Virus genome (UHGV): UHGV-0008253
Length of the DNA: 42,773 nucleotides
Strand: one strand, 5' to 3'
From: a virus
Shown here: in pieces, positions 5,628 to 38,705 of the stretch
Layout of the letters: each line of letters begins with the position of its first letter
Numbering within the stretch: the stretch's first letter is position 1
The notes under the pieces: model-generated
Seen by the model: only the letters and a program-made list of their open reading frames with translations
Told to the model about the DNA's origin: nothing
The model's database searches: none
Translations under genes and position numbers: made by a program

Positions 5628-5642
5628 TTACCGTTGAGGTAA
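5628..5642. promoter_or_regulatory. operator palindrome TTACCgttgaGGTAA at PL-like promoter
   Basis: perfect TTACC-N5-GGTAA; directly downstream of candidate -10 (5643-5648) and -35 TTGACA (5665-5670) on minus strand. Confidence 0.6.
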
Positions 5643-5689
5643 TAATTATGCGTATATGGTTTGATGTCAATAGATATGAGTTAAAAAAA

Positions 5690-5704
5690 TTACCCGTTAG
5701 GTAA
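5690..5704. promoter_or_regulatory. operator palindrome TTACCcgttaGGTAA
   Basis: perfect TTACC-N5-GGTAA 20 bp upstream of the PL-like -35. Confidence 0.6.
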
Positions 5705-5761: not shown

Positions 5762-6346
5762 TTATTGTTTGTTTTTTTCGTTCTGGTTGATGACAAATTC
5801 AATGTAACTTTCGATCTTTGCTTTCTCGGTTTCGGGTAACAATGCGTAGCGCGAGCGATCATAGTTGATGGTCGCAGGGTCGTGCGGGTGAATCAGTAAT
5901 TCATAGCCGTGACGCCCGAATGCGGATGCAACATTCTCCAGGGTGGAAATGGAAACGCTGACCTCATTGTTTAACAGGCGGCTGATTGTCACCTGGGCGA
6001 CGCCGGATGCGCGGTGTAGTTTTCCCTGCGTTGAAAGGTCGCGGCTTTCGCTCATCCAGCGTTCCAGGTTGTGAGCCGCCAACTGACCAATGTCGCTAGG
6101 GCCGACAGGCTGAAAACCTTCCTGAGAAAGCGAGCGATCGATATCAAGCCAGTTACGGGGTTTATTGGCGGCAGCTTCAATTTTTCGCGCAACCTGGTCG
6201 CCGATAACCTTCTTGCCAAGAGCCCAGCGGTTTACCAGATTTGCCTGAGTTCCAAGTTTTTCAGCCATCCGCGTCTGAACACCATTGAATTCACGGTCGA
6301 TCAAGTCGTTGAGATTTTGCCTGCGGACGTCCTGGATACTTTTCAT
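5762..6346 (-). CDS. phage repressor, tandem HTH (XRE-type) DNA-binding protein without recognisable S24 autocleavage domain
   Basis: two HTH-like segments (QTRMAEKLGTQANLVNRWALG and ASGVAQVTISRLLNNE); divergent from cro-like gene with operators between. Confidence 0.7.
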   Translation of the reverse strand: MKSIQDVRRQNLNDLIDREFNGVQTRMAEKLGTQANLVNRWALGKKVIGDQVARKIEAAANKPRNWLDIDRSLSQEGFQPVGPSDIGQLAAHNLERWMSESRDLSTQGKLHRASGVAQVTISRLLNNEVSVSISTLENVASAFGRHGYELLIHPHDPATINYDRSRYALLPETEKAKIESYIEFVINQNEKNKQ

Positions 6347-6401: not shown

Positions 6402-6416
6402 TTACCCAACAGGTAA
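6402..6416. promoter_or_regulatory. operator palindrome TTACCcaacaGGTAA in repressor/cro intergenic region
   Basis: perfect TTACC-N5-GGTAA. Confidence 0.65.
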
Positions 6417-6418
6417 AT

Positions 6419-6433
6419 GCACCCCACAGGTAA
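6419..6433. promoter_or_regulatory. degenerate operator GCACCccacaGGTAA
   Basis: right half-site perfect, left half 2 mismatches; lies between two stronger sites. Confidence 0.35.
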
Positions 6434-6449
6434 CTATCCTTGATTTTTG

Positions 6450-6464
6450 TTACCTTATGGGTGA
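6450..6464. promoter_or_regulatory. operator TTACCttatgGGTGA overlapping PR-like promoter
   Basis: 1 mismatch; overlaps -35 TTGTTA (6447-6452), 17-bp spacer, -10 TATTAT (6470-6475) reading toward cro-like gene. Confidence 0.6.
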
Positions 6465-6500
6465 ATATTTATTATCTGAAATAAATATCAGGCAATAGCT

Positions 6501-8747: not shown

Positions 8748-8794
8748 TAAAATATTCTAAAATCTATTGATTTCGTGTCTTATGTGGTTTTTAA

Positions 8795-8809
8795 TTACCT
8801 AAGGGGTAA
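8795..8809. promoter_or_regulatory. operator palindrome TTACCtaaggGGTAA overlapping RBS of 8813 gene
   Basis: perfect TTACC-N5-GGTAA ending 4 nt before the ATG. Confidence 0.6.
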
Positions 8810-15517: not shown

Positions 15518-15720
15518 AGTCTAATCTCACCTTAAAAAAATGCCCTGCGAACCGGGCGAACTGGAAGCAATGAGTTATGCCTTCCGTGGCTGTACTGGTT
15601 TACAGCATGAAGTCATCGCAATGGCGTCCTGCTGTAAAAAGGGCGGTGATAGTCCTTCAAGGGAAACCATCACCGCCAAGCACCTGGAACTTCTGGCATC
15701 ACGGTCCTTAGGCGTGATTC

Positions 15721-15797
15721 TGGCGTGGCATGCAGGATTCGAACCTGCGACCAACCGCTTAGAAGGCGGTTGCTCTGTCCGACTGAGCTAATGCCAC
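15721..15797 (-). tRNA. tRNA-Arg (anticodon UCU)
   Basis: cloverleaf read directly: acceptor GTGGCAT/ATGCCAC, D-stem GCTC/GAGC, anticodon stem ACCGC/GCGGT with loop CUUCUAA, T-arm GCAGG-TTCGAAT-CCTGC, discriminator G, CCA. Confidence 0.85.
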
Positions 15798-20133: not shown

Positions 20134-20153
20134 GTGGGTCGTAACAGACCCAC
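20134..20153 (+). promoter_or_regulatory. stable hairpin after capsid gene (gtgggtc-gtaaca-gacccac), possible attenuator/RNA stability element
   Basis: 7-bp GC-rich stem read directly; no U-tract so not a classic terminator. Confidence 0.4.
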
Positions 20154-32961: not shown

Positions 32962-32990
32962 AAAAAAGCCCGCAGCGCGGGCTATTCTTT
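32962..32990. terminator. bidirectional rho-independent terminator
   Basis: hairpin gcccgc-agc-gcgggc flanked by A6 upstream and tattctttttt downstream; overlaps stop of 288-aa gene. Confidence 0.7.
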
Positions 32991-33848
32991 TTTGCTATTT
33001 CTTTGATATATATTTCTTCCATTTTTGGTAACACGAATAACGTGCCCCCTGGATTCTACTTTGTTATTTGTTGCTTTATATACTTCAAAATCAAACCATG
33101 ATATATAACTTATTTCGTCAATAGACACCATGATCTCAAGTCCTAGCACTTTCTTTCTGCTAATTCCTCTTATTGCTGCAGTCCGCTTGACCTGTATTTC
33201 TCCTGGATAAGCATTAGTGAATGTGACAGATAAGTTTTCTTTGTTCCTGTATCCTGACATTAAAGGAACAAAAGATATGTGCTGATGCGGACCCTGATTT
33301 TCCGTTGGTTCACCAGAACCATTTATTATTCCAACATACACTTTGTTTGATGATAAAGTAATCAACATTGGTCGTTTAGGATCCGATTCAATAGCATCAA
33401 GCAATAGTAAGTCTAAAGAACCTTGCGAGTAAGTTTTTCGCAGTACTCTGGCCTTCATTGCCTCTGTTTTTTGCTCGTAAATATCACGTTTATAAAAACA
33501 ACCAAGAAGAAAATCTTTCACCCACACAACAGACACATAACACAAAGAGAAGCAAATGGATGTGGCTGAGAGAAGAAGCAGCCACATGTAAATTCTATCT
33601 GTTTCTGGTTTTGATGTTACATTAAAAGTTTCCACCATATCGTGAACTAGGTGAAAATCAGGCCATTTATATTTTATAGCGGCTGCAATTATTACTGATG
33701 CAACAAGGCAATATGTACCTAATGCAGCTACTTTCATATAAAGAAGCTGGCCTTCATGTCGGTATAAACGGAAATAATGATACTGGTTAGCGGTTATCAT
33801 AATATAACCACTAACCAGAATGGGGATAATTAGAAGAGCTAACAACAC
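32982..33848 (-). CDS. membrane-anchored protein of unknown function (3 N-terminal TM helices + about 170-aa soluble domain), low-GC moron
   Basis: hydrophobic segments at residues about 1-20, 39-58, 88-110; markedly AT-rich codon usage versus neighbours; coupled to upstream 69-aa gene. Confidence 0.6.
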   Translation of the reverse strand: MLLALLIIPILVSGYIMITANQYHYFRLYRHEGQLLYMKVAALGTYCLVASVIIAAAIKYKWPDFHLVHDMVETFNVTSKPETDRIYMWLLLLSATSICFSLCYVSVVWVKDFLLGCFYKRDIYEQKTEAMKARVLRKTYSQGSLDLLLLDAIESDPKRPMLITLSSNKVYVGIINGSGEPTENQGPHQHISFVPLMSGYRNKENLSVTFTNAYPGEIQVKRTAAIRGISRKKVLGLEIMVSIDEISYISWFDFEVYKATNNKVESRGHVIRVTKNGRNIYQRNSKKE

Positions 33849-34057
33849 TATTTCCTTACAGTGGCAAGATCCTGTTTAACAATTGCAGCAGCGAGACGAC
33901 GCATCTCCTTAACCTCAGGAAGCTCAGAAATTTGCTGTGATGAGATATATACTCCACCACGCTTGTTAACCTGCGCTGACGCCGGAACTTCTGCATTTTT
34001 TGCCTGAGGGCTGGGTGCATTATCCCTCGTTTTTGTACGAGCGAACCAAAATCCCAT
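33848..34057 (-). CDS. small protein of unknown function, first gene of two-gene cassette
   Basis: ATG at 34057 preceded by strong SD GAGGAGGAG; stop overlaps start of 288-aa gene. Confidence 0.55.
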   Translation of the reverse strand: MGFWFARTKTRDNAPSPQAKNAEVPASAQVNKRGGVYISSQQISELPEVKEMRRLAAAIVKQDLATVRK

Positions 34058-34083
34058 ATCTCCTCCTCATGTAAACCCATGGT

Positions 34084-34098
34084 TTACCTTTAAGGTAA
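34084..34098. promoter_or_regulatory. operator palindrome TTACCtttaaGGTAA at promoter of 69-aa/288-aa cassette
   Basis: perfect TTACC-N5-GGTAA 27 bp upstream of start codon. Confidence 0.6.
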
Positions 34099-34164
34099 TC
34101 TTACGTGAATCTACATCACACCGCAAATGATTATGTCAGAAGCACATCCCTGTGCCGCCGCCCG

Positions 34165-34815
34165 TCAGAAGAACCCTGCCTTGTCGTTGATGTACTCCGC
34201 GTGGGTCTGGATATCACGCAGGCATTTGCTCACACCGACGATGTAGCAGAACATGGTGGTCAGCTCCGCCGCCGCGCCCGATACGTCGTGCCCGTCGTCC
34301 TGTAACTGGTTCAGCAGATTCATCAGCAGTGAGTTCTCCGTCAGGCCGAGAACACCAGACGGCGAATGAATCAGGCTACGGTAGCCGGGCTTCAGTGGGG
34401 CACTGTATTCTTTTTTGTCTTCCAGCTTGATCGCCTCCATAATGGCGGGCATGAAGCCTGACAAGACCTTCTCCACTTTTGTTTCTTGTTGTCTTAAACG
34501 TTTCTCGCATTCAATGAAGTAGCGTCGTACCTGACGACCTTTTTCGTTACGCTCGACCATCGCCAGCTCTTTGGCTGTATCGAGGGTGAGGTGGTAGTCT
34601 TTTGCAGGACGGCCTCTGCCTATTTTTTCCCGAACTTGGGAAATAATCATAAAGTCTTGATTTTCAACGAAACCATATTCAGAAATTCGTTCGACAATCC
34701 ACGAAGCAAATCGCTTACCCACATCGAGGAAAGTGTGTAAATCACGGGCATTAACGAGAAGAGCGGTTTCGTTGGATATAGTGCCGTTGAATACGGGGAT
34801 GAGTTGAGCGTTCAT
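34165..34815 (-). CDS. antirepressor (AntA/Bro-N-like N-terminal domain + C-terminal domain shared with 85-aa protein)
   Basis: N-terminus LIPVFNGTISNETALLVNARDLHTFLDVGKRFASWIVE resembles AntA-type antirepressors; C-terminus about 40 percent identical to 35133-35390 product. Confidence 0.65.
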   Translation of the reverse strand: MNAQLIPVFNGTISNETALLVNARDLHTFLDVGKRFASWIVERISEYGFVENQDFMIISQVREKIGRGRPAKDYHLTLDTAKELAMVERNEKGRQVRRYFIECEKRLRQQETKVEKVLSGFMPAIMEAIKLEDKKEYSAPLKPGYRSLIHSPSGVLGLTENSLLMNLLNQLQDDGHDVSGAAAELTTMFCYIVGVSKCLRDIQTHAEYINDKAGFF

Positions 34816-34973
34816 TATGGCGTCTCCACTTAGCGAATTACATCACCACCGCTGAGACCAATCAGATGGTGGTGAACTGAACGGAGTTGGTCTTACCGGC
34901 CTAAGTGGTACCGGCGTCCTTTCGGACCCCCATTCAGCCCACCATAATTCTGGCATGACTGTGCTATACGCAT

Positions 34974-35095
34974 AAAAAAACCACGTCTGGCGTGGTATGC
35001 GCCACTTAGTAATCCGGGAGACCAATCCCGGCACTGGATTTTGCCAGTGCCCGATTACTATGGCACAAGAGGAGTGCGATGTAAATTTACCTCAA
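34974..35095 (-). ncRNA. candidate small RNA / structured ant leader ending in intrinsic terminator
   Basis: candidate promoter -35 TTGAAA (35124-35129), -10 TTATAT (35102-35107), operator over +1; three stem-loops (ggcactgg/ccagtgcc, ccggga/tcccgg, ccacg/cgtgg) then U7. Confidence 0.4.
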
Positions 35096-35101
35096 AGGTA
35101 A
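35087..35101. promoter_or_regulatory. operator palindrome TTACCtcaaaGGTAA at candidate ant/sRNA promoter
   Basis: perfect TTACC-N5-GGTAA abutting candidate -10. Confidence 0.6.
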
Positions 35102-35132
35102 ATATAAGCACTCCACTTGGTAATTTCAAATC

Positions 35133-35390
35133 TTATCTGGTTTGTTTTCGTAATTGTTCGGCACAATAGTCGAGATGTGTTTGCAGATCCTGCATAGACA
35201 TCTGTGAGCTGGTGACGTAGTTAATCAGTGCAGTCAGTTCGGCAAGTGGGCCATCGACATTAAATCCATCCTTATCGAGATCCCGGAGTAATTTCATCAA
35301 GTGCGATCCCTCCACCAGTGACCTGACGCCTCCCGGCGTGTGAATCCTTTCGGTAAATCCGTCTTCCAGTGGATAGTGATACTGCTGCAT
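35133..35390 (-). CDS. small antirepressor-like protein (stand-alone homolog of Ant C-terminal domain), LexA-box controlled
   Basis: 85 aa from ATG 35390 with GGAGAAG SD; IHTPGGV...LMKLL...DG..V.G.LAELT...DLQTH aligns to Ant C-terminus; LexA box 19 nt upstream. Confidence 0.6.
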   Translation of the reverse strand: MQQYHYPLEDGFTERIHTPGGVRSLVEGSHLMKLLRDLDKDGFNVDGPLAELTALINYVTSSQMSMQDLQTHLDYCAEQLRKQTR

Positions 35391-35409
35391 CTTATCTTCT
35401 CCATGCAAT

Positions 35410-35429
35410 AACTGTATATTTATACAGTA
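35410..35429. promoter_or_regulatory. LexA box (SOS operator) AACTGTATATTTATACAGTA
   Basis: CTGT-N8-ACAG with AT-rich spacer, 18/20 match to consensus TACTGTATATATATACAGTA. Confidence 0.75.
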
Positions 35430-35466
35430 GCAAATAATTTGTTTGCTATCCAGCACGTTTTGCAAA

Positions 35467-35481
35467 TTACCTGAAAGGTAA
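35467..35481. promoter_or_regulatory. operator palindrome TTACCtgaaaGGTAA between LexA-box gene and tailspike
   Basis: perfect TTACC-N5-GGTAA. Confidence 0.6.
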
Positions 35482-35585
35482 TATCTATTCGTATTTACAG
35501 CCTTTCTATCCATATGTGGTTTTCCAGGTAATAGAATAACCAGATATGCGGCGCAACGGGTGCTGCGACTATCTGGAGATTTAAC

Positions 35586-38500
35586 ATGACGGTCTCAACC
35601 GAAGTTGACCACAACGAATACACCGGTAACGGCGTTACGACATCGTTTCCGTATACTTTTCGAGTTTTCAGAAAATCAGACCTGGTTGTTCAGGTGTCTG
35701 ACCTGAACGGAAACGTAACAGAATTGGTTCTGGATACCGGTTATACGGTAACTGGGGCGGGCACTTATAGTGGCGGTTCTGTGGTTCTTCCGTCTCCGCT
35801 TGCTACTGGATGGCGAATTACGATAGATCGTGTGCTTGATGTAGTGCAGGAGACAGACCTTCGCAATCAGGGAAAATTTTTCCCCGAAGTGCATGAAGAT
35901 GCCTTTGACTACCTGACGATGCTGATCCAGCAATGTTTTGGGTGGTTCAGACGTGCATTGATGAAACCATCTTTGCTTGCAAAATATTACGATGCAAAGC
36001 AAAACAAAATTTCTAACCTTGCAGATCCATCATTTGAGCAGGACGCTGTAAATAATCGCTCAATGCGTAATTATGTCGATGCTGCAATCTCCGGGGTTGT
36101 TGGTGGTTTTGGTTGGTTTATTCAGTATGGTTCTGGGGCTGTGTACCGAACGTTCCAGGATAAAATGCGTGATGCTATTAGCCCCAAAGATTTTGGAGCT
36201 GTTGGTGATGGTATAAATGACGATTCCACTGCAATAAGCGCGTGCCTTGAAGCCTCATCTCCAGGTTATAAAATTGACGGATTAGGGCTTACTTTTAAAG
36301 TATCAACTCTTCCGGATGTCAGTCGATTTAAAAATGCTCGTTTTTTATTTGAGAGAATACCGGGCCAGCCTCTTTTTTATGCTTCTGAAGATTTTATCCA
36401 GGGAGAGTTATTTAAAATTACAGATACACCGTGGTACAACGCCTGGACGCAGGATAAAACGTTTGTATATGACAATGTCATCTATGCGCCTTTTATGGCT
36501 GGAGACCGCCATGGTGTAAATAACCTCCATGTTGCATGGGTTCGCTCAGGAGATGACGGGAAGACCTGGACAACGCCGGAATGGCTTACAGATTTACATG
36601 AAAACTATCCCACAGTTAACTATCACTGCATGAGTATGGGGGTTGTCAGAAATCGCCTTTTTGCTGTAATTGAGACGCGGACCGTGAGCGGAAATAAACT
36701 GCAGGTTGCAGAGTTGTGGGATCGCCCAATGAGTCGCAGCCTTCGCGTTTATGGTGGTATAACGAAAGCAGCAAATCAGCAAGTCGCTTATATTCGCATT
36801 ACTGATCACGGATTATTTGCTGGTGATTTTGTCAACTTCTCAAACTCTGGTGTTACAGGTGTTACCGGGAATATGACGGTGACTACTGTTATTGATAAAA
36901 ATACTTTTACAGTTACGACGCAAAATACCCAGGATGTGGATCAGAATAACGAGGGTAGATACTGGAGTTTTGGTACATCATTTCACTCGTCACCATGGAG
37001 AAAAACCAGTCTTGGAACTATTCCTTCTTTTGTTGACGGAAGCACTCCTGTTACTGAGATTCACAGTTTTGCGACGATTAGCGATAACAGTTTTGCTGTT
37101 GGCTACCATAATGGTGATATTGGTCCACGCGAGCTTGGGATACTCTATTTCTCTGATGCTTTCGGTTCTCCTGGTAGCTTTGTTCGCAGACGCATACCTG
37201 CAGAATATGAGGCGAATGCATCTGAGCCATGTGTAAAATATTATGATGGCATTCTGTATCTGACGACCAGGGGGACATTAAGTACTCAACCCGGTAGTTC
37301 ATTGCACAGAAGCTCTGATTTAGGTACATCATGGAATTCTCTTCGCTTCCCAAATAATGTTCATCACTCAAACCTTCCTTTTGCCAAAGTTGGCGATGAG
37401 CTGATTATTTTTGGCAGTGAGCGCGCATTTGGTGAGTGGGAAGGAGGAGAACCTGATAACCGTTATGCAGGAAACTATCCAAGAACATTTATGACCAGAG
37501 TTAACGTCAATGAGTGGAGTCTGGATAATGTAGAGTGGGTTAATGTTACTGATCAGATTTATCAGGGCGGAATAGTTAACTCTGCGGTTGGTGTTGGTTC
37601 AGTTTGTATCAAAGACAACTGGCTGTACTACATTTTCGGTGGGGAAGACTTTCTAAACCCATGGAGCATAGGGGATAACAACAGAAAATATCCTTATGTT
37701 CACGATGGTCACCCGGCTGATTTGTATTGTTTCAGGGTGAAAATTAAACAGGAAGAATTTGTTTCAAGGGATTTTGTCTACGGAGCCACTCCTAACAGAA
37801 CGCTTCCTACTTTTATGTCGACGTCAGGCGTGAGGACGGTTCCTGTACCCGTTGATTTCACAGATGATGTTGCCGTCCAGTCACTGACTGTCCATGCAGG
37901 TACATCAGGACAAGTTCGCGCGGAAGTCAAACTTGAGGGTAATTACGCCATTATTGCGAAGAAAGTACCGTCTGATGATGTTACCGCTCAGAGATTAATC
38001 GTTAGCGGCGGTGAAACAACGTCTTCAGCAGATGGTGCAATGATAACGTTGCATGGTTCCGGAAGCAGTACTCCACGTCGCGCGGTATATAACGCACTCG
38101 AACATCTTTTTGAGAACGGAGATGTTAAACCTTATCTTGATAATGTAAATGCTCTTGGTGGTCCGGGAAACAGGTTCTCGACAGTTTATCTTGGCTCCAA
38201 TCCTGTGGTTACCAGTGACGGAACATTAAAGACAGAGCCGGTCTCTCCTGACGAAGCATTGCTGGATGCCTGGGGTGACGTCAGGTATATCGCTTATAAA
38301 TGGCTGAACGCTGTCGCTATAAAGGGGGAAGAAGGGGCGAGGATACATCATGGTGTAATCGCGCAGCAACTTCGTGATGTTCTTATTTCTCACGGACTCA
38401 TGGAAGAAGAAAGCACAACATGCCGCTATGCCTTTCTTTGCTATGACGATTATCCCGCAGTATATGATGACGTCATTACTGGCCAAAGGGAAATGCCGCT

Positions 38501-38705
38501 GACTGATAATGACGGGAGCATCATTGTTGATGAGGATGATAATCCAGTGATGGTAATAGAAGACATCATTGAGCGCGTTGAAATAACGCCAGCAGGATCT
38601 AGATGGGGGGTCAGACCTGATCTCTTATTCTATATCGAGGCAGCATGGCAGCGCAGAGAAATGGATAAGATAAAAGAGCGGGTTCAGTCTCTGGAAGAAC
38701 GTTAA
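35586..38705 (+). CDS. tailspike / receptor-binding depolymerase with pectate-lyase-like beta-helix and C-terminal intramolecular chaperone (S74-like) domain
   Basis: ISPKDFGAVGDGINDDSTAISA motif typical of beta-helix tailspikes; C-terminus SDGTLK...IHHGVIAQQLRDV...AAWQRREMDKIKERVQSLEER resembles autoproteolytic chaperone domains. Confidence 0.8.
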   Translation: MTVSTEVDHNEYTGNGVTTSFPYTFRVFRKSDLVVQVSDLNGNVTELVLDTGYTVTGAGTYSGGSVVLPSPLATGWRITIDRVLDVVQETDLRNQGKFFPEVHEDAFDYLTMLIQQCFGWFRRALMKPSLLAKYYDAKQNKISNLADPSFEQDAVNNRSMRNYVDAAISGVVGGFGWFIQYGSGAVYRTFQDKMRDAISPKDFGAVGDGINDDSTAISACLEASSPGYKIDGLGLTFKVSTLPDVSRFKNARFLFERIPGQPLFYASEDFIQGELFKITDTPWYNAWTQDKTFVYDNVIYAPFMAGDRHGVNNLHVAWVRSGDDGKTWTTPEWLTDLHENYPTVNYHCMSMGVVRNRLFAVIETRTVSGNKLQVAELWDRPMSRSLRVYGGITKAANQQVAYIRITDHGLFAGDFVNFSNSGVTGVTGNMTVTTVIDKNTFTVTTQNTQDVDQNNEGRYWSFGTSFHSSPWRKTSLGTIPSFVDGSTPVTEIHSFATISDNSFAVGYHNGDIGPRELGILYFSDAFGSPGSFVRRRIPAEYEANASEPCVKYYDGILYLTTRGTLSTQPGSSLHRSSDLGTSWNSLRFPNNVHHSNLPFAKVGDELIIFGSERAFGEWEGGEPDNRYAGNYPRTFMTRVNVNEWSLDNVEWVNVTDQIYQGGIVNSAVGVGSVCIKDNWLYYIFGGEDFLNPWSIGDNNRKYPYVHDGHPADLYCFRVKIKQEEFVSRDFVYGATPNRTLPTFMSTSGVRTVPVPVDFTDDVAVQSLTVHAGTSGQVRAEVKLEGNYAIIAKKVPSDDVTAQRLIVSGGETTSSADGAMITLHGSGSSTPRRAVYNALEHLFENGDVKPYLDNVNALGGPGNRFSTVYLGSNPVVTSDGTLKTEPVSPDEALLDAWGDVRYIAYKWLNAVAIKGEEGARIHHGVIAQQLRDVLISHGLMEEESTTCRYAFLCYDDYPAVYDDVITGQREMPLTDNDGSIIVDEDDNPVMVIEDIIERVEITPAGSRWGVRPDLLFYIEAAWQRREMDKIKERVQSLEER

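Follow-up and report, generated by a model that had tools for sequence, protein, structure and literature searches.

A LexA-controlled small antirepressor as the probable induction trigger of a phiV10/epsilon15-type prophage in Escherichia coli

In Salmonella phage SPC32H, an antirepression switch built from Rep, Ant, and LexA is said to have been worked out by Kim and Ryu in 2013 and Kim et al. in 2016, in experiments that reportedly showed that LexA controls ant, that Rep is not cleaved, and that Ant and Rep form a complex. The PDB holds SPC32H Ant crystallized bound to Rep (5D50) and the Rep C-terminal domain (5D4Z). According to a passage in a review that cites Kim and Ryu (2013), self-cleavage of LexA leads to production of the antirepressor, which inhibits the repressor; secondary sources add that the C-terminal domain of SPC32H Rep mediates both tetramerization and Ant binding, and that Ant is a homotetramer.

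LexA-controlled antirepressors are found in other phages as well. GfoA, GftA, and GfhA of Gifsy-1, -2, and -3 are small antirepressors under direct LexA control, and the Gifsy system resembles the one described here in pairing a short, non-cleavable repressor with a gene for a small antirepressor that lies outside the immunity region; the Gifsy genes adjoin a dinI homologue, and for the complex an A2B2 composition was reported, not a hetero-octamer (Lemire et al. 2011, PMC3121763). Tum of phage 186 and AntC of N15 are likewise antirepressors under LexA repression, and each binds the repressor of its phage. P22 is, like the phage studied here, a podovirus with its antirepressor gene away from the immunity region; a P22 ant mutant is reported to be still SOS inducible, and ant to be controlled by Mnt. 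The c2 repressor of P22 autocleaves, which would account for the inducibility of the mutant, and P22 ant is also controlled by Arc, not by LexA.

The locus that we compared with these systems lies in a 42,773-nucleotide virus genome (UHGV-0008253), the whole of which is called the window below; its features are collected in Table 1. An initial annotation, made without database searches, had placed a LexA box before the gene of an 85-amino acid (aa) protein and likened the arrangement to Gifsy-type phages and to 186 Tum. The LexA-antirepressor logic of that comparison is supported, but the closest relative lies elsewhere: SPC32H belongs to the same genus (Uetakevirus), and its Ant/Rep pair is, judged by sequence, the closest known relative of the finding. 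We treat Gifsy GfoA and GftA and 186 Tum as no more than functional analogues: the likeness to Gifsy is one of logic, whereas in PDB, Pfam, and PHROG the window protein points to the SPC32H family alone, and Tum has 146 aa with a DinI-like half, whereas no DinI-like part was detected in the 85-aa protein.

Table 1. Features of the window, with positions, strand, and the basis of each assignment.
Feature	Position	Strand	Basis or detail
LexA (SOS) box AACTGTATATTTATACAGTA	35410-35429	none	18/20 to consensus; CTGT and ACAG arms both intact
Candidate ant promoter region	35419-35465	minus	Two options, inferred from sequence and conserved block CTGGATAG
Candidate ant promoter, option 1	TTGCAA 35465-35460; ACAAAT 35442-35437	minus	17-nt spacer; box just downstream of start site
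Candidate ant promoter, option 2	TAGCAA 35448-35443; TATAAA 35424-35419	minus	18-nt spacer; -10 within box
ant, 85-aa small antirepressor, SPC32H Ant ortholog	35133-35390 (stop codon included)	minus	Homology
Shine-Dalgarno GGAG, 8 nt before ant ATG	35399-35402	minus	Read from sequence
Palindrome TTACCTGAAAGGTAA (TTACC-N5-GGTAA), probable Rep operator	35467-35481	none	Lies in ant/tailspike intergenic region
Tandem promoters of large-Ant cassette around one palindrome (35087-35101)	35057-35129	minus	Promoter scan
Cassette promoter P1, TTGAAA-17-TATATT	35129-35101	minus	Promoter scan
Cassette promoter P2, TTTACA-17-CATAGT	35085-35057	minus	Promoter scan
isrK-like sRNA with intrinsic terminator (34996-34980)	34974-35050	minus	Rfam RF01394, 67.7 bits (gathering 50); terminator scan
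isrK elements a1 TTGGTCT and b1 CTAAGTGG	35025-35019; 35009-35002	minus	Complementarity
37-aa leader ORF overlapping C4 region	34843-34956	minus	Internal ATG of listed ORF
C4-type antisense RNA	34865-34949	minus	Rfam RF01695, 61.2 bits (gathering 45)
C4 elements a' AGACCAA and b' CCACTTAG	34893-34887; 34908-34901	minus	Complementarity
Large antirepressor, 216 aa	34165-34815	minus	AntA N-terminal domain and Ant-like C-terminal domain (residues ~133-214)
rep, 194-aa repressor, full-length SPC32H Rep homolog, no S24 domain	5762-6346	minus	Homology
Putative left operator pair, 62 bp centre to centre	5628-5642 and 5690-5704 (span 5628-5704)	none	Palindrome matches
Putative operators just upstream of rep start	6402-6416 and 6450-6464 (span 6402-6464)	none	Palindrome matches

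The correspondence with SPC32H extends to gene order and promoter layout. In both phages ant lies between the internal-protein genes and a divergent tailspike, outside the immunity region, and the SPC32H gene at this position is annotated 'ant: anti-repressor protein' in GenBank. Both have a LexA box equally far from the ATG and the same TTACC-N5-GGTAA palindrome upstream of it. The Ant proteins (86 aa in SPC32H) are ~88% identical by tblastn; the Rep proteins are homologous over their full length and have no S24 domain, yet share only 42% identity (over 196 aa). The two loci part company after ant: in SPC32H the gene is followed by a terminator-like hairpin and T-run (read by eye), whereas in the window it runs straight into a cassette of isrK, C4, and a second, large antirepressor (large Ant), none of which SPC32H and its Salmonella relatives possess. 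The hosts differ too, being Salmonella for SPC32H and E. coli for the window, whose system is known here from sequence.

A search of the 42.8-kb window for the LexA consensus TACTGTATATATATACAGTA, allowing up to three mismatches, returned a single site, the box before ant, with two mismatches; none of 100 shuffles contained any match. Its distance from the ATG (35390, minus strand) is exactly 19 nt, so that the near-consensus box (18/20) claimed at this spacing was borne out. Two further CTGT-N8-ACAG matches in the window (15590 and 20132) have G+C-rich spacers and, with 0.72 expected, are consistent with chance. Among nine phages compared, CTGT-N8-ACAG ending 21 nt before the ATG is kept in seven (from Escherichia, Salmonella, and Enterobacter), while both Klebsiella phages have ATGT instead of CTGT in one arm. 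The sequence flanking the box diverges among the phages in which the box keeps its exact position; the GGAG Shine-Dalgarno is unchanged throughout the alignment. The genomes of SPC32H and SPC32N, which we take to be a constitutive-Ant variant of it, differ at only two bases, one of them a G>T change within the CTGT arm of their homologous box, at the G that corresponds to window position 35414. Neither candidate ant promoter scored above threshold in a consensus promoter scan, both having weak hexamers.

The 85-aa protein matches PDB 5D50_E, 'Anti-repressor protein', over nearly its whole length (residues 2-84 against 3-85, E 4.1e-47), and phrog_450, a family labelled 'unknown function', over its full length (E 9e-48). 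Searches of NCBIfam and PADLOC gave no match, and Pfam nothing above threshold, with a single sub-threshold match to DUF724. Its relatives form 136 clusters of ~85-86-aa proteins from Enterobacteriaceae, and in every E. coli record among those listed, phage and RefSeq chromosome alike, the gene is labelled 'hypothetical protein'. A longer reading frame of 126 aa (35133-35513) was rejected as the true product: its in-frame extension contains stop codons in six of nine related phages. The small Ant is identical to residues 135-212 of the large Ant at 31 of 78 positions (40%, E 7e-16), and 20 positions are invariant in both forms of the domain. The initial annotation had thus rightly seen the ~40% identity to the C-terminal ~80 residues of the neighboring protein and the paralogy behind it; what it called a stand-alone copy of the C-terminal domain is more aptly seen as the canonical antirepressor of these phages, complete in itself.

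Rep matches PDB 5D50_A (E 4e-42) and, with its C-terminal domain, 5D4Z_A (E 4e-20), and it is 100% identical to phiV10 Rep. A Pfam search of Rep returned HTH_3 matches only and no Peptidase_S24, in agreement with the earlier reading that it lacks an S24 autocleavage motif. Full-length Rep occurs in 36 phage records and Ant in 35, with the same host and organism breakdown; the two share essentially the same set of ~35 records. Since Rep is only 42% identical to its SPC32H counterpart, we treat binding of the window's Ant to its Rep as an assumption.

The TTACC-N5-GGTAA palindrome was matched 27 times in the window, counted by strand, where 0.57 matches would be expected. Upstream of ant, where its presence had already been noticed, it ends 74-76 nt before the ATG in all nine phages, with one mismatch in the 3' arm (GGTGA) in phiV10, and lies ~55-62 bp upstream of the LexA box. 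The positions of the sites suggest that the palindrome is a Rep operator: the proximal site of the left pair abuts the -10 of a PL-like promoter (5670-5642, minus), the site at 6450-6464 falls within the spacer of a PR-like promoter (6447-6475, plus), the left pair is spaced by 62 bp, and SPC32H has syntenic palindromes, three in each intergenic region flanking rep. If Rep at 35467-35481 repressed ant, it would work against induction. Around this site, neither a promoter scan nor inspection by eye revealed a convincing sigma-70 promoter for the tailspike gene.

The large Ant consists of a variable N-terminal domain fused to an Ant-like domain. The N-terminal part is AntA in the window (Pfam, E 7e-28) and Bro-N in phiV10 and ZX5; residues 135-211 match PDB 5D50_E (E 9.5e-14), and PHROG matches are to phrog_377 ('anti-repressor Ant' families) and, on residues 133-214, to phrog_450. 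In phiV10 the C-terminal domain is apparently split by a frameshift. A large-protein-database search with the C-terminal domain retrieved 31 mostly short proteins instead of the expected long fusions, and says little on how widely the domain is fused; stand-alone proteins of ~95 aa from the large-Ant lineage were among them. The separate promoter predicted for this gene was recovered as the tandem pair P1/P2, of which P1 begins 4 nt past the ant stop codon, and the arrangement of tandem promoters around a palindrome is kept in seven phages. A terminator scan found none between the small ant and these promoters.

Beyond its own promoters, the large Ant appears from Rfam matches and base complementarity to be under an isrK/C4 antisense-RNA control cassette, which the initial annotation had missed. 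The a' and b' elements of C4 are exactly complementary to a1 and b1 in isrK and also to a2 (34861-34855) and b2 (34833-34826), all short matches of 7 and 8 nt, respectively, that carry no shuffle control; b2 overlaps the large-Ant Shine-Dalgarno (GTGGAG before ATG 34815). The global duplex of isrK with the whole leader was no different from shuffles (-53.2 against -48.0 +/- 5.2 kcal/mol) and was set aside; the pairing proposed here is that of the a and b motifs. Both RNAs are present in all six related loci with a large Ant and absent from both loci without one. The equivalent of the 37-aa leader ORF in phage ZX5 is annotated 'ash family protein'.

For this cassette, though not for the small ant, the nearest known systems are immI of phages P1 and P7 (c4 antisense RNA, icd, and ant) and the isrK-orf45-anrP locus of Gifsy-1 (Hershko-Shalev et al. 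2016, PMC4825925). Like them, it has an sRNA terminator with read-through geometry, C4 loops complementary to upstream and downstream targets including a ribosome-binding site, a short leader ORF in the position of Gifsy-1 orf45 and P1 icd, and a downstream antirepressor of AntA/Bro-N type, a class assigned from the Pfam AntA and PHROG families. It differs from them in its place directly behind an antirepressor gene under LexA control, from which no terminator separates it, in encoding a large Ant that shares the Rep-binding-type domain of the small Ant, and in a b2 element that overlaps the Ant Shine-Dalgarno itself. What appears to be new here is a large Ant placed behind a P1 immI/Gifsy-1 isrK-like RNA cassette whose tandem promoters flank a probable Rep operator.

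Together, these comparisons make it highly probable that the locus triggers the induction of a phiV10/epsilon15-type (Uetakevirus) prophage, in which a LexA-controlled small Ant would disable a non-cleavable Rep. The prediction made at the outset, that the SOS response induces the prophage by way of an antirepressor under LexA repression, aimed at a repressor unable to cleave itself, is supported by both the SPC32H homology and the shared promoter layout. What we observed directly is the sequence, its homologies, and a layout that is conserved; that LexA controls ant, that Rep is not cleaved, and that Ant forms a complex with Rep is carried over from SPC32H by orthology and should be read as prediction for the window. 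During lysogeny, host LexA bound to its box would block the ant promoter, while Rep, with two helix-turn-helix-like domains and no autocleavage domain, would hold TTACC-N5-GGTAA operators at essentially every phage promoter. DNA damage would activate RecA, LexA would cleave itself, and ant would be transcribed. The 85-aa Ant would then bind the C-terminal domains of Rep and convert the DNA-binding tetramer into dimers, freeing the operators and turning on the lytic genes. The mechanism is already known, and the window holds the E. coli copy of a characterized switch.

Other roles for these genes deserve to be weighed against this trigger. The large AntA-type antirepressor might be the real inducer, with the 85-aa protein an accessory or redundant paralog. 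It bears the same Ant-like domain, and in the near-identical phage ZX5 overexpression of the large antirepressor (ORF4) alone lowered lysogeny, with prophage titres down ~1000-fold and lower repressor transcription, which leaves room for an inducer besides the small Ant. We nevertheless find it improbable that the large protein is the trigger: the LexA box stands only at the small ant, Ant-dependent induction is described in SPC32H although that phage has neither large Ant nor isrK/C4, and the phiV10 protein is apparently broken in the very domain concerned. In addition, the putative Rep operator and the C4 antisense block on its Shine-Dalgarno should keep the large Ant silent until Rep is already off.

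Still less likely is a reading in which the target of the 85-aa protein is the large Ant and not Rep, and in which mixed oligomers modulate the large Ant, positively or as a dominant negative. The common domain, with its 40% identity and 20 invariant positions, would permit such mixing, and the homotetramer described for SPC32H Ant implies that the domain is an oligomerization surface; yet phages that lack the large Ant have a working small one, and the small Ant co-occurs with Rep and not with the large Ant and was crystallized together with Rep. The idea that the LexA box is fortuitous or vestigial, with Rep governing ant from the palindrome upstream, can draw on the conservation of that probable operator in front of ant and on the degenerate half-site (ATGT for CTGT) of the Klebsiella relatives. 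We give it almost no credence, given that no shuffle reached such a match, that the box holds its exact position in seven of nine phages despite diverging flanks (both Klebsiella phages being degenerate), and that one of only two SPC32H/SPC32N differences falls in its CTGT; moreover, a prophage with ant under Rep alone could not be induced.

With the LexA-controlled small Ant as the preferred trigger, the point of wider interest is whether the two antirepressors in tandem, one LexA-gated and the other RNA-gated, form a cascade, the switch itself being understood from SPC32H. The missing terminator between the small ant and the cassette suggests, as a possibility that we hold only tentatively, that in the E. 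coli/Klebsiella/Enterobacter branch the SPC32H-type switch was extended into a two-stage commitment circuit by a P1 immI-like cassette behind ant. The inserted unit would comprise tandem promoters around a putative Rep operator, an IsrK decoy RNA, a C4 antisense RNA, the 37-aa leader ORF, and a large antirepressor in which the Ant domain is used again. With no terminator in the way, ant transcripts would read through into the isrK-C4-large Ant cassette, and LexA cleavage would co-transcribe ant with IsrK, the natural C4 antagonist. Because the cassette promoters carry the probable Rep operator, they would switch on second, once Ant had freed Rep from the DNA and Rep was inactive, to give a burst of large Ant. 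Such a burst, if it occurs, could lock in induction or inactivate the repressors of co-resident prophages. We know of no described case in which a protein antirepressor gated by LexA feeds a paralog gated by RNA.

The one experimental paper on ZX5, itself an E. coli phage, studied only the large antirepressor and mentions neither LexA nor SPC32H. Naming the 85-aa gene as the SOS trigger should allow better predictions of the prophages that DNA-damaging antibiotics induce. Among 5,426 complete E. coli genomes, 889 match some part of a 1.6-kb query spanning the locus (34000-35600), and most of it is present in 79. The prophage in the window also carries a K1-capsule endosialidase tailspike.

Across the 42,773-bp window, no site other than the LexA box that the initial annotation placed 19 nt upstream of an 85-aa gene (hereafter ant, encoding the small Ant) came within three mismatches of TACTGTATATATATACAGTA, the E. 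coli SOS-box consensus; a set of 100 dinucleotide-preserving shuffles yielded no match at that cutoff. The looser pattern CTGT-N8-ACAG occurred three times (0.72 expected); its copies at 15590 and 20132 have G+C-rich spacers and probably arose by chance. A consensus scan found no strong σ70 promoter for ant or for the tailspike gene; two weak candidates for ant can be proposed. A 126-aa version of the gene proposed by the ORF finder (start 35513) was rejected: in-frame stop codons interrupt the extension in 6 of 9 related phages, indicating that the 85-aa reading is correct. The resemblance of the small Ant to the C-terminal domain of its neighbor, the 216-aa large Ant, held up as well (31/78 identities, or 40%, to residues 135–212; E = 7e-16), as did every other factual element of the initial observation.

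When all PDB chains were searched, the small Ant matched only one, 5D50 chain E ('Anti-repressor protein', 86 aa), from end to end (E = 4.1e-47). Phage collection records identify this chain as the Ant of Salmonella phage SPC32H, annotated 'ant: anti-repressor protein'; its gene occupies the same locus as in the window: it is a minus-strand gene lying immediately upstream of the tailspike gene, in divergent orientation. The two proteins are 88% identical (tblastn). The candidate repressor, Rep, matches 5D50_A ('Repressor') over residues 1–190 (E = 4e-42) and 5D4Z with its C-terminal half, and is 42% identical to SPC32H Rep in pairwise comparison. A Pfam search of Rep returned helix-turn-helix families alone and no Peptidase_S24, in keeping with the earlier claim of a repressor lacking that autocleavage domain. 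Rep is 100% identical to that of phiV10, DNA identity of the region to phiv142-3, ZX5, and phiV10 is 90–94%, and we classify the window by homology as a Uetakevirus (epsilon15/phiV10-type) prophage. By tblastn, Rep and Ant share a common phylogenetic profile, with full-length Rep in 36 phage records, Ant in 35, and a matching breakdown by host genus. Every feature of the SPC32H Rep/Ant system that can be tested from sequence was found here, and on these grounds the small Ant is a member of that known system.

To gauge how far the control region is conserved, the 130 nt preceding the ATG of ant were compared among the window, SPC32H, VB_ST_E15, phiV10, phiv142-3, ZX5, Enterobacter phage Tyrion, and two Klebsiella prophages. 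The seven sequences from Escherichia, Salmonella, and Enterobacter phages all have a CTGT-N8-ACAG whose end is exactly 21 nt 5' of the ATG; the two from Klebsiella keep the palindrome TTACC-N5-GGTAA, and one arm of their box reads ATGT. The palindrome, which the initial annotation had also noticed upstream of ant, ends 74–76 nt 5' of the ATG in 9/9 (phiV10 carries one mismatch, GGTGA, in the 3' arm), and across these nine the sequence between box and palindrome diverges. Read directly, the SPC32H ant promoter has the same layout as the window. In GenBank, SPC32H and its sibling SPC32N each have 38,689 bp and are distinguished by exactly two bases. One (19960, G>T; window equivalent 35414) changes the CTGT of the LexA box to CTTT; the other, at 20147, falls among the earliest codons of the tailspike gene.

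Kim and Ryu (2013, J Virol 87:11775) reportedly found that SPC32H and SPC32N lie two nucleotides apart, that Ant is constitutive in SPC32N owing to a point mutation in a LexA site that overlaps the ant promoter, and that the SOS response leaves Rep uncleaved while Ant inactivates it. The box difference fits this account. A review places Kim and Ryu (2013) among systems in which LexA self-cleavage yields an antirepressor that inhibits the repressor of lytic growth. A second paper describes Rep as a tetramer on DNA that is split by tetrameric Ant, each Ant tetramer binding two Rep dimers. In a third, tetramerization and Ant binding are both assigned to the Rep C-terminal domain.

The predicted SOS induction through a LexA-controlled antirepressor is thus very probable, with homology, synteny, and regulatory layout computed in the window and the biochemical steps transferred from SPC32H. 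LexA would sit on the box and repress ant; upon SOS-induced cleavage of LexA, Ant would be made, bind the C-terminal domains of a non-cleavable Rep (non-cleavage is likewise transferred), and clear the operators, allowing lytic transcription. This switch would work like those of Gifsy GfoA/GftA (PMC3121763) and 186 Tum, so the precedent originally cited is apt in mode of action, but sequence kinship points instead to SPC32H Ant (88%).

Features of the ant region, its RNA cassette, and other loci of the window
Feature	Position	Strand	Remarks
rep, candidate repressor	5762-6346	minus	194 aa
LexA box AACTGTATATTTATACAGTA	35410-35429		2 mismatches to E. coli SOS-box consensus
GGAG upstream of ant	35402-35399	minus	within the 19 nt between box and ATG 35390
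ant ORF	ATG 35390 to stop 35133	minus	85 aa, MQQYHYPLEDG...
Cassette overall	34865-35129	minus	isrK, C4, tandem promoters, terminator, 37-aa leader ORF
P1, TTGAAA-17-TATATT	35129-35101	minus	predicted; begins four bases past ant stop codon
Cassette palindrome	35087-35101		between P1 and P2
P2, TTTACA-17-CATAGT	35085-35057	minus	predicted start = isrK 5' end
isrK	34974-35050	minus	Rfam, 67.7 bits
Intrinsic terminator	34996-34980	minus	predicted; ends isrK
37-aa ORF	34956-34843	minus	overlaps C4; ZX5 counterpart annotated 'ash family protein'
C4 antisense RNA	34865-34949	minus	Rfam, 61.2 bits
15-bp palindromes (starts)	136, 5628, 5690, 6402, 6450, 6787, 8733, 8795, 12955, 16120, 34084, 35087, 35467		
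tRNA-Arg	15721-15797	minus	anticodon TCT; syntenic with tRNA-Arg annotated in SPC32H
Tailspike	35586-38705	plus	chimera

Which sites Rep would occupy is suggested by the palindrome. TTACCT-N3-AGGTAA (≤2 mismatches) gave 27 strand matches in the window against 0.57 expected. Restricting the TTACC/GGTAA arms to ≤1 mismatch left 14 sites, which fall between ORFs where transcription units begin, and nearly every such unit has one. Palindrome 5628–5642 begins where the −10 of a predicted promoter (TTGACA-17-AATTAT) stops, 6450–6464 lies inside the spacer of another (TTGTTA-17-TATTAT), and by eye the −10-then-palindrome geometry recurs at 8795, 34084, and 35087. Two pairs are spaced 62 bp center to center (5635/5697 and 8740/8802), as in SPC32H, where the palindromes are syntenic and the intergenic regions on either side of rep hold three each; this spacing, about six helical turns, suits a tetramer bridging two sites. 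Based on position relative to predicted promoters, pairing, and synteny, the palindrome is probably the Rep operator; we found no statement of Rep's operator sequence in the accessible literature. Such dispersed operators resemble those of P1 C1, which are scattered over the genome. At ant, the LexA box takes the promoter-proximal place and a lone palindrome lies about 55–62 bp upstream, where it could repress the tailspike promoter, serve as a distal loop partner, or modulate ant. A further short motif, TATGTGGTTT or TATATGGTTT (direct or reverse complement according to promoter orientation), occurs at 5647–5656, 8779–8788, and 35504–35513, near three palindromes and within two promoter spacers, and has similar copies in SPC32H.

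The 318-bp gap between ant and the large Ant gene (34165–34815) contains two Rfam matches above the gathering score, isrK and C4, and the predicted P1 and P2 give substance to the idea that the large Ant has promoters of its own. AGACCAA and CCACTTAG in the C4-like RNA are exact complements of TTGGTCT and CTAAGTGG in isrK; second copies complementary to C4 follow downstream at 34861–34855 and 34833–34826, the latter overlapping the GTGGAG Shine-Dalgarno sequence of the large Ant (ATG 34815). This design is that of both the P1/P7 immI operon and the Gifsy-1 isrK-orf45-anrP locus. In immI, Citron and Schuster (1990) reportedly showed that C4 pairs with a2/b2, blocking translation, with a1/b1 located upstream. 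In Gifsy-1, IsrK acts in trans to open the leader for translation of the antirepressor AnrP, and STnc1160, a processed RNA downstream of isrK, is complementary to IsrK (PMC4825925). The cassette is present in 6/6 related loci with a large antirepressor and absent from both Salmonella loci without one.

The large Ant proteins differ in their N-terminal domains, which is AntA in the window (Pfam, E = 7e-28) and, as annotated, Bro-N in phiV10 and ZX5. The C-terminal domain of the window's large Ant matches 5D50_E (E = 9.5e-14) and, where tblastn detects one, is conserved, with 20 invariant positions common to the small Ants; the large protein of Tyrion gave no tblastn match to it. In phiV10 this domain is split over two frames (L004 1512–2191, annotated p22 and p23), and the large Ant there may be inactivated by frameshift. 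Overexpression of the large antirepressor lowers lysogeny in the ZX5 paper, which shows that it is active and does not fix its position in the pathway. The terminator scan found none between ant and the cassette, whereas SPC32H has an apparent hairpin-plus-T-run terminator directly 3' of ant (by eye). It is possible, though rather doubtful, that ant transcripts run on into isrK while Rep release derepresses P1/P2, so that IsrK would titrate C4 and synthesis of the large Ant would follow, providing a second-stage amplifier or cross-prophage inducer. In Klebsiella phage ST512-KPC3phi13.3 (L008 1712–2404), about 610 bp with two small ORFs, a terminator, and an extra palindrome are inserted between ant and the isrK promoter, indicating that this junction tolerates insertions.

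The E. coli copies of ant are labeled 'hypothetical protein' in every E. coli phage and RefSeq record examined, PHROG 450, the family of the small Ant, is labeled 'unknown function', and no Pfam or NCBIfam model matches the protein; the practical gain is therefore annotation. The tandem of ant and the immI-like cassette is perhaps the sole part worth experiments.

Residues 1–209 of the adjoining tailspike form an epsilon15-type domain that resembles the N-terminal domain in other phage tailspike/depolymerase structures (E = 1.1e-35). It is fused to a K1F-type endosialidase (residues 205–876; PDB 3GVL and 1V0E, E about 0) with a C-terminal chaperone domain, which makes K1-capsulated E. coli the target of the prophage. 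Avian strain BEN5202 carries DNA 99% identical to the query region 34000–35600, next to a tailspike gene annotated as an endosialidase. Downstream of the large Ant lies an AT-rich, minus-strand two-gene unit (32982–34098) with its own palindrome (34084–34098), encoding proteins of 69 aa (phrog_5739) and 288 aa (phrog_3630). The unit gave no Pfam, NCBIfam, or PADLOC matches, the hydrophobic N-terminal half of the 288-aa protein makes it look membrane-anchored, and phiv142-3 has other small ORFs in its place; the unit could be a moron that serves lysogenic conversion or exclusion. Finally, a TTGACA promoter seen by eye beside the 16120 palindrome would drive the tRNA-Arg gene.
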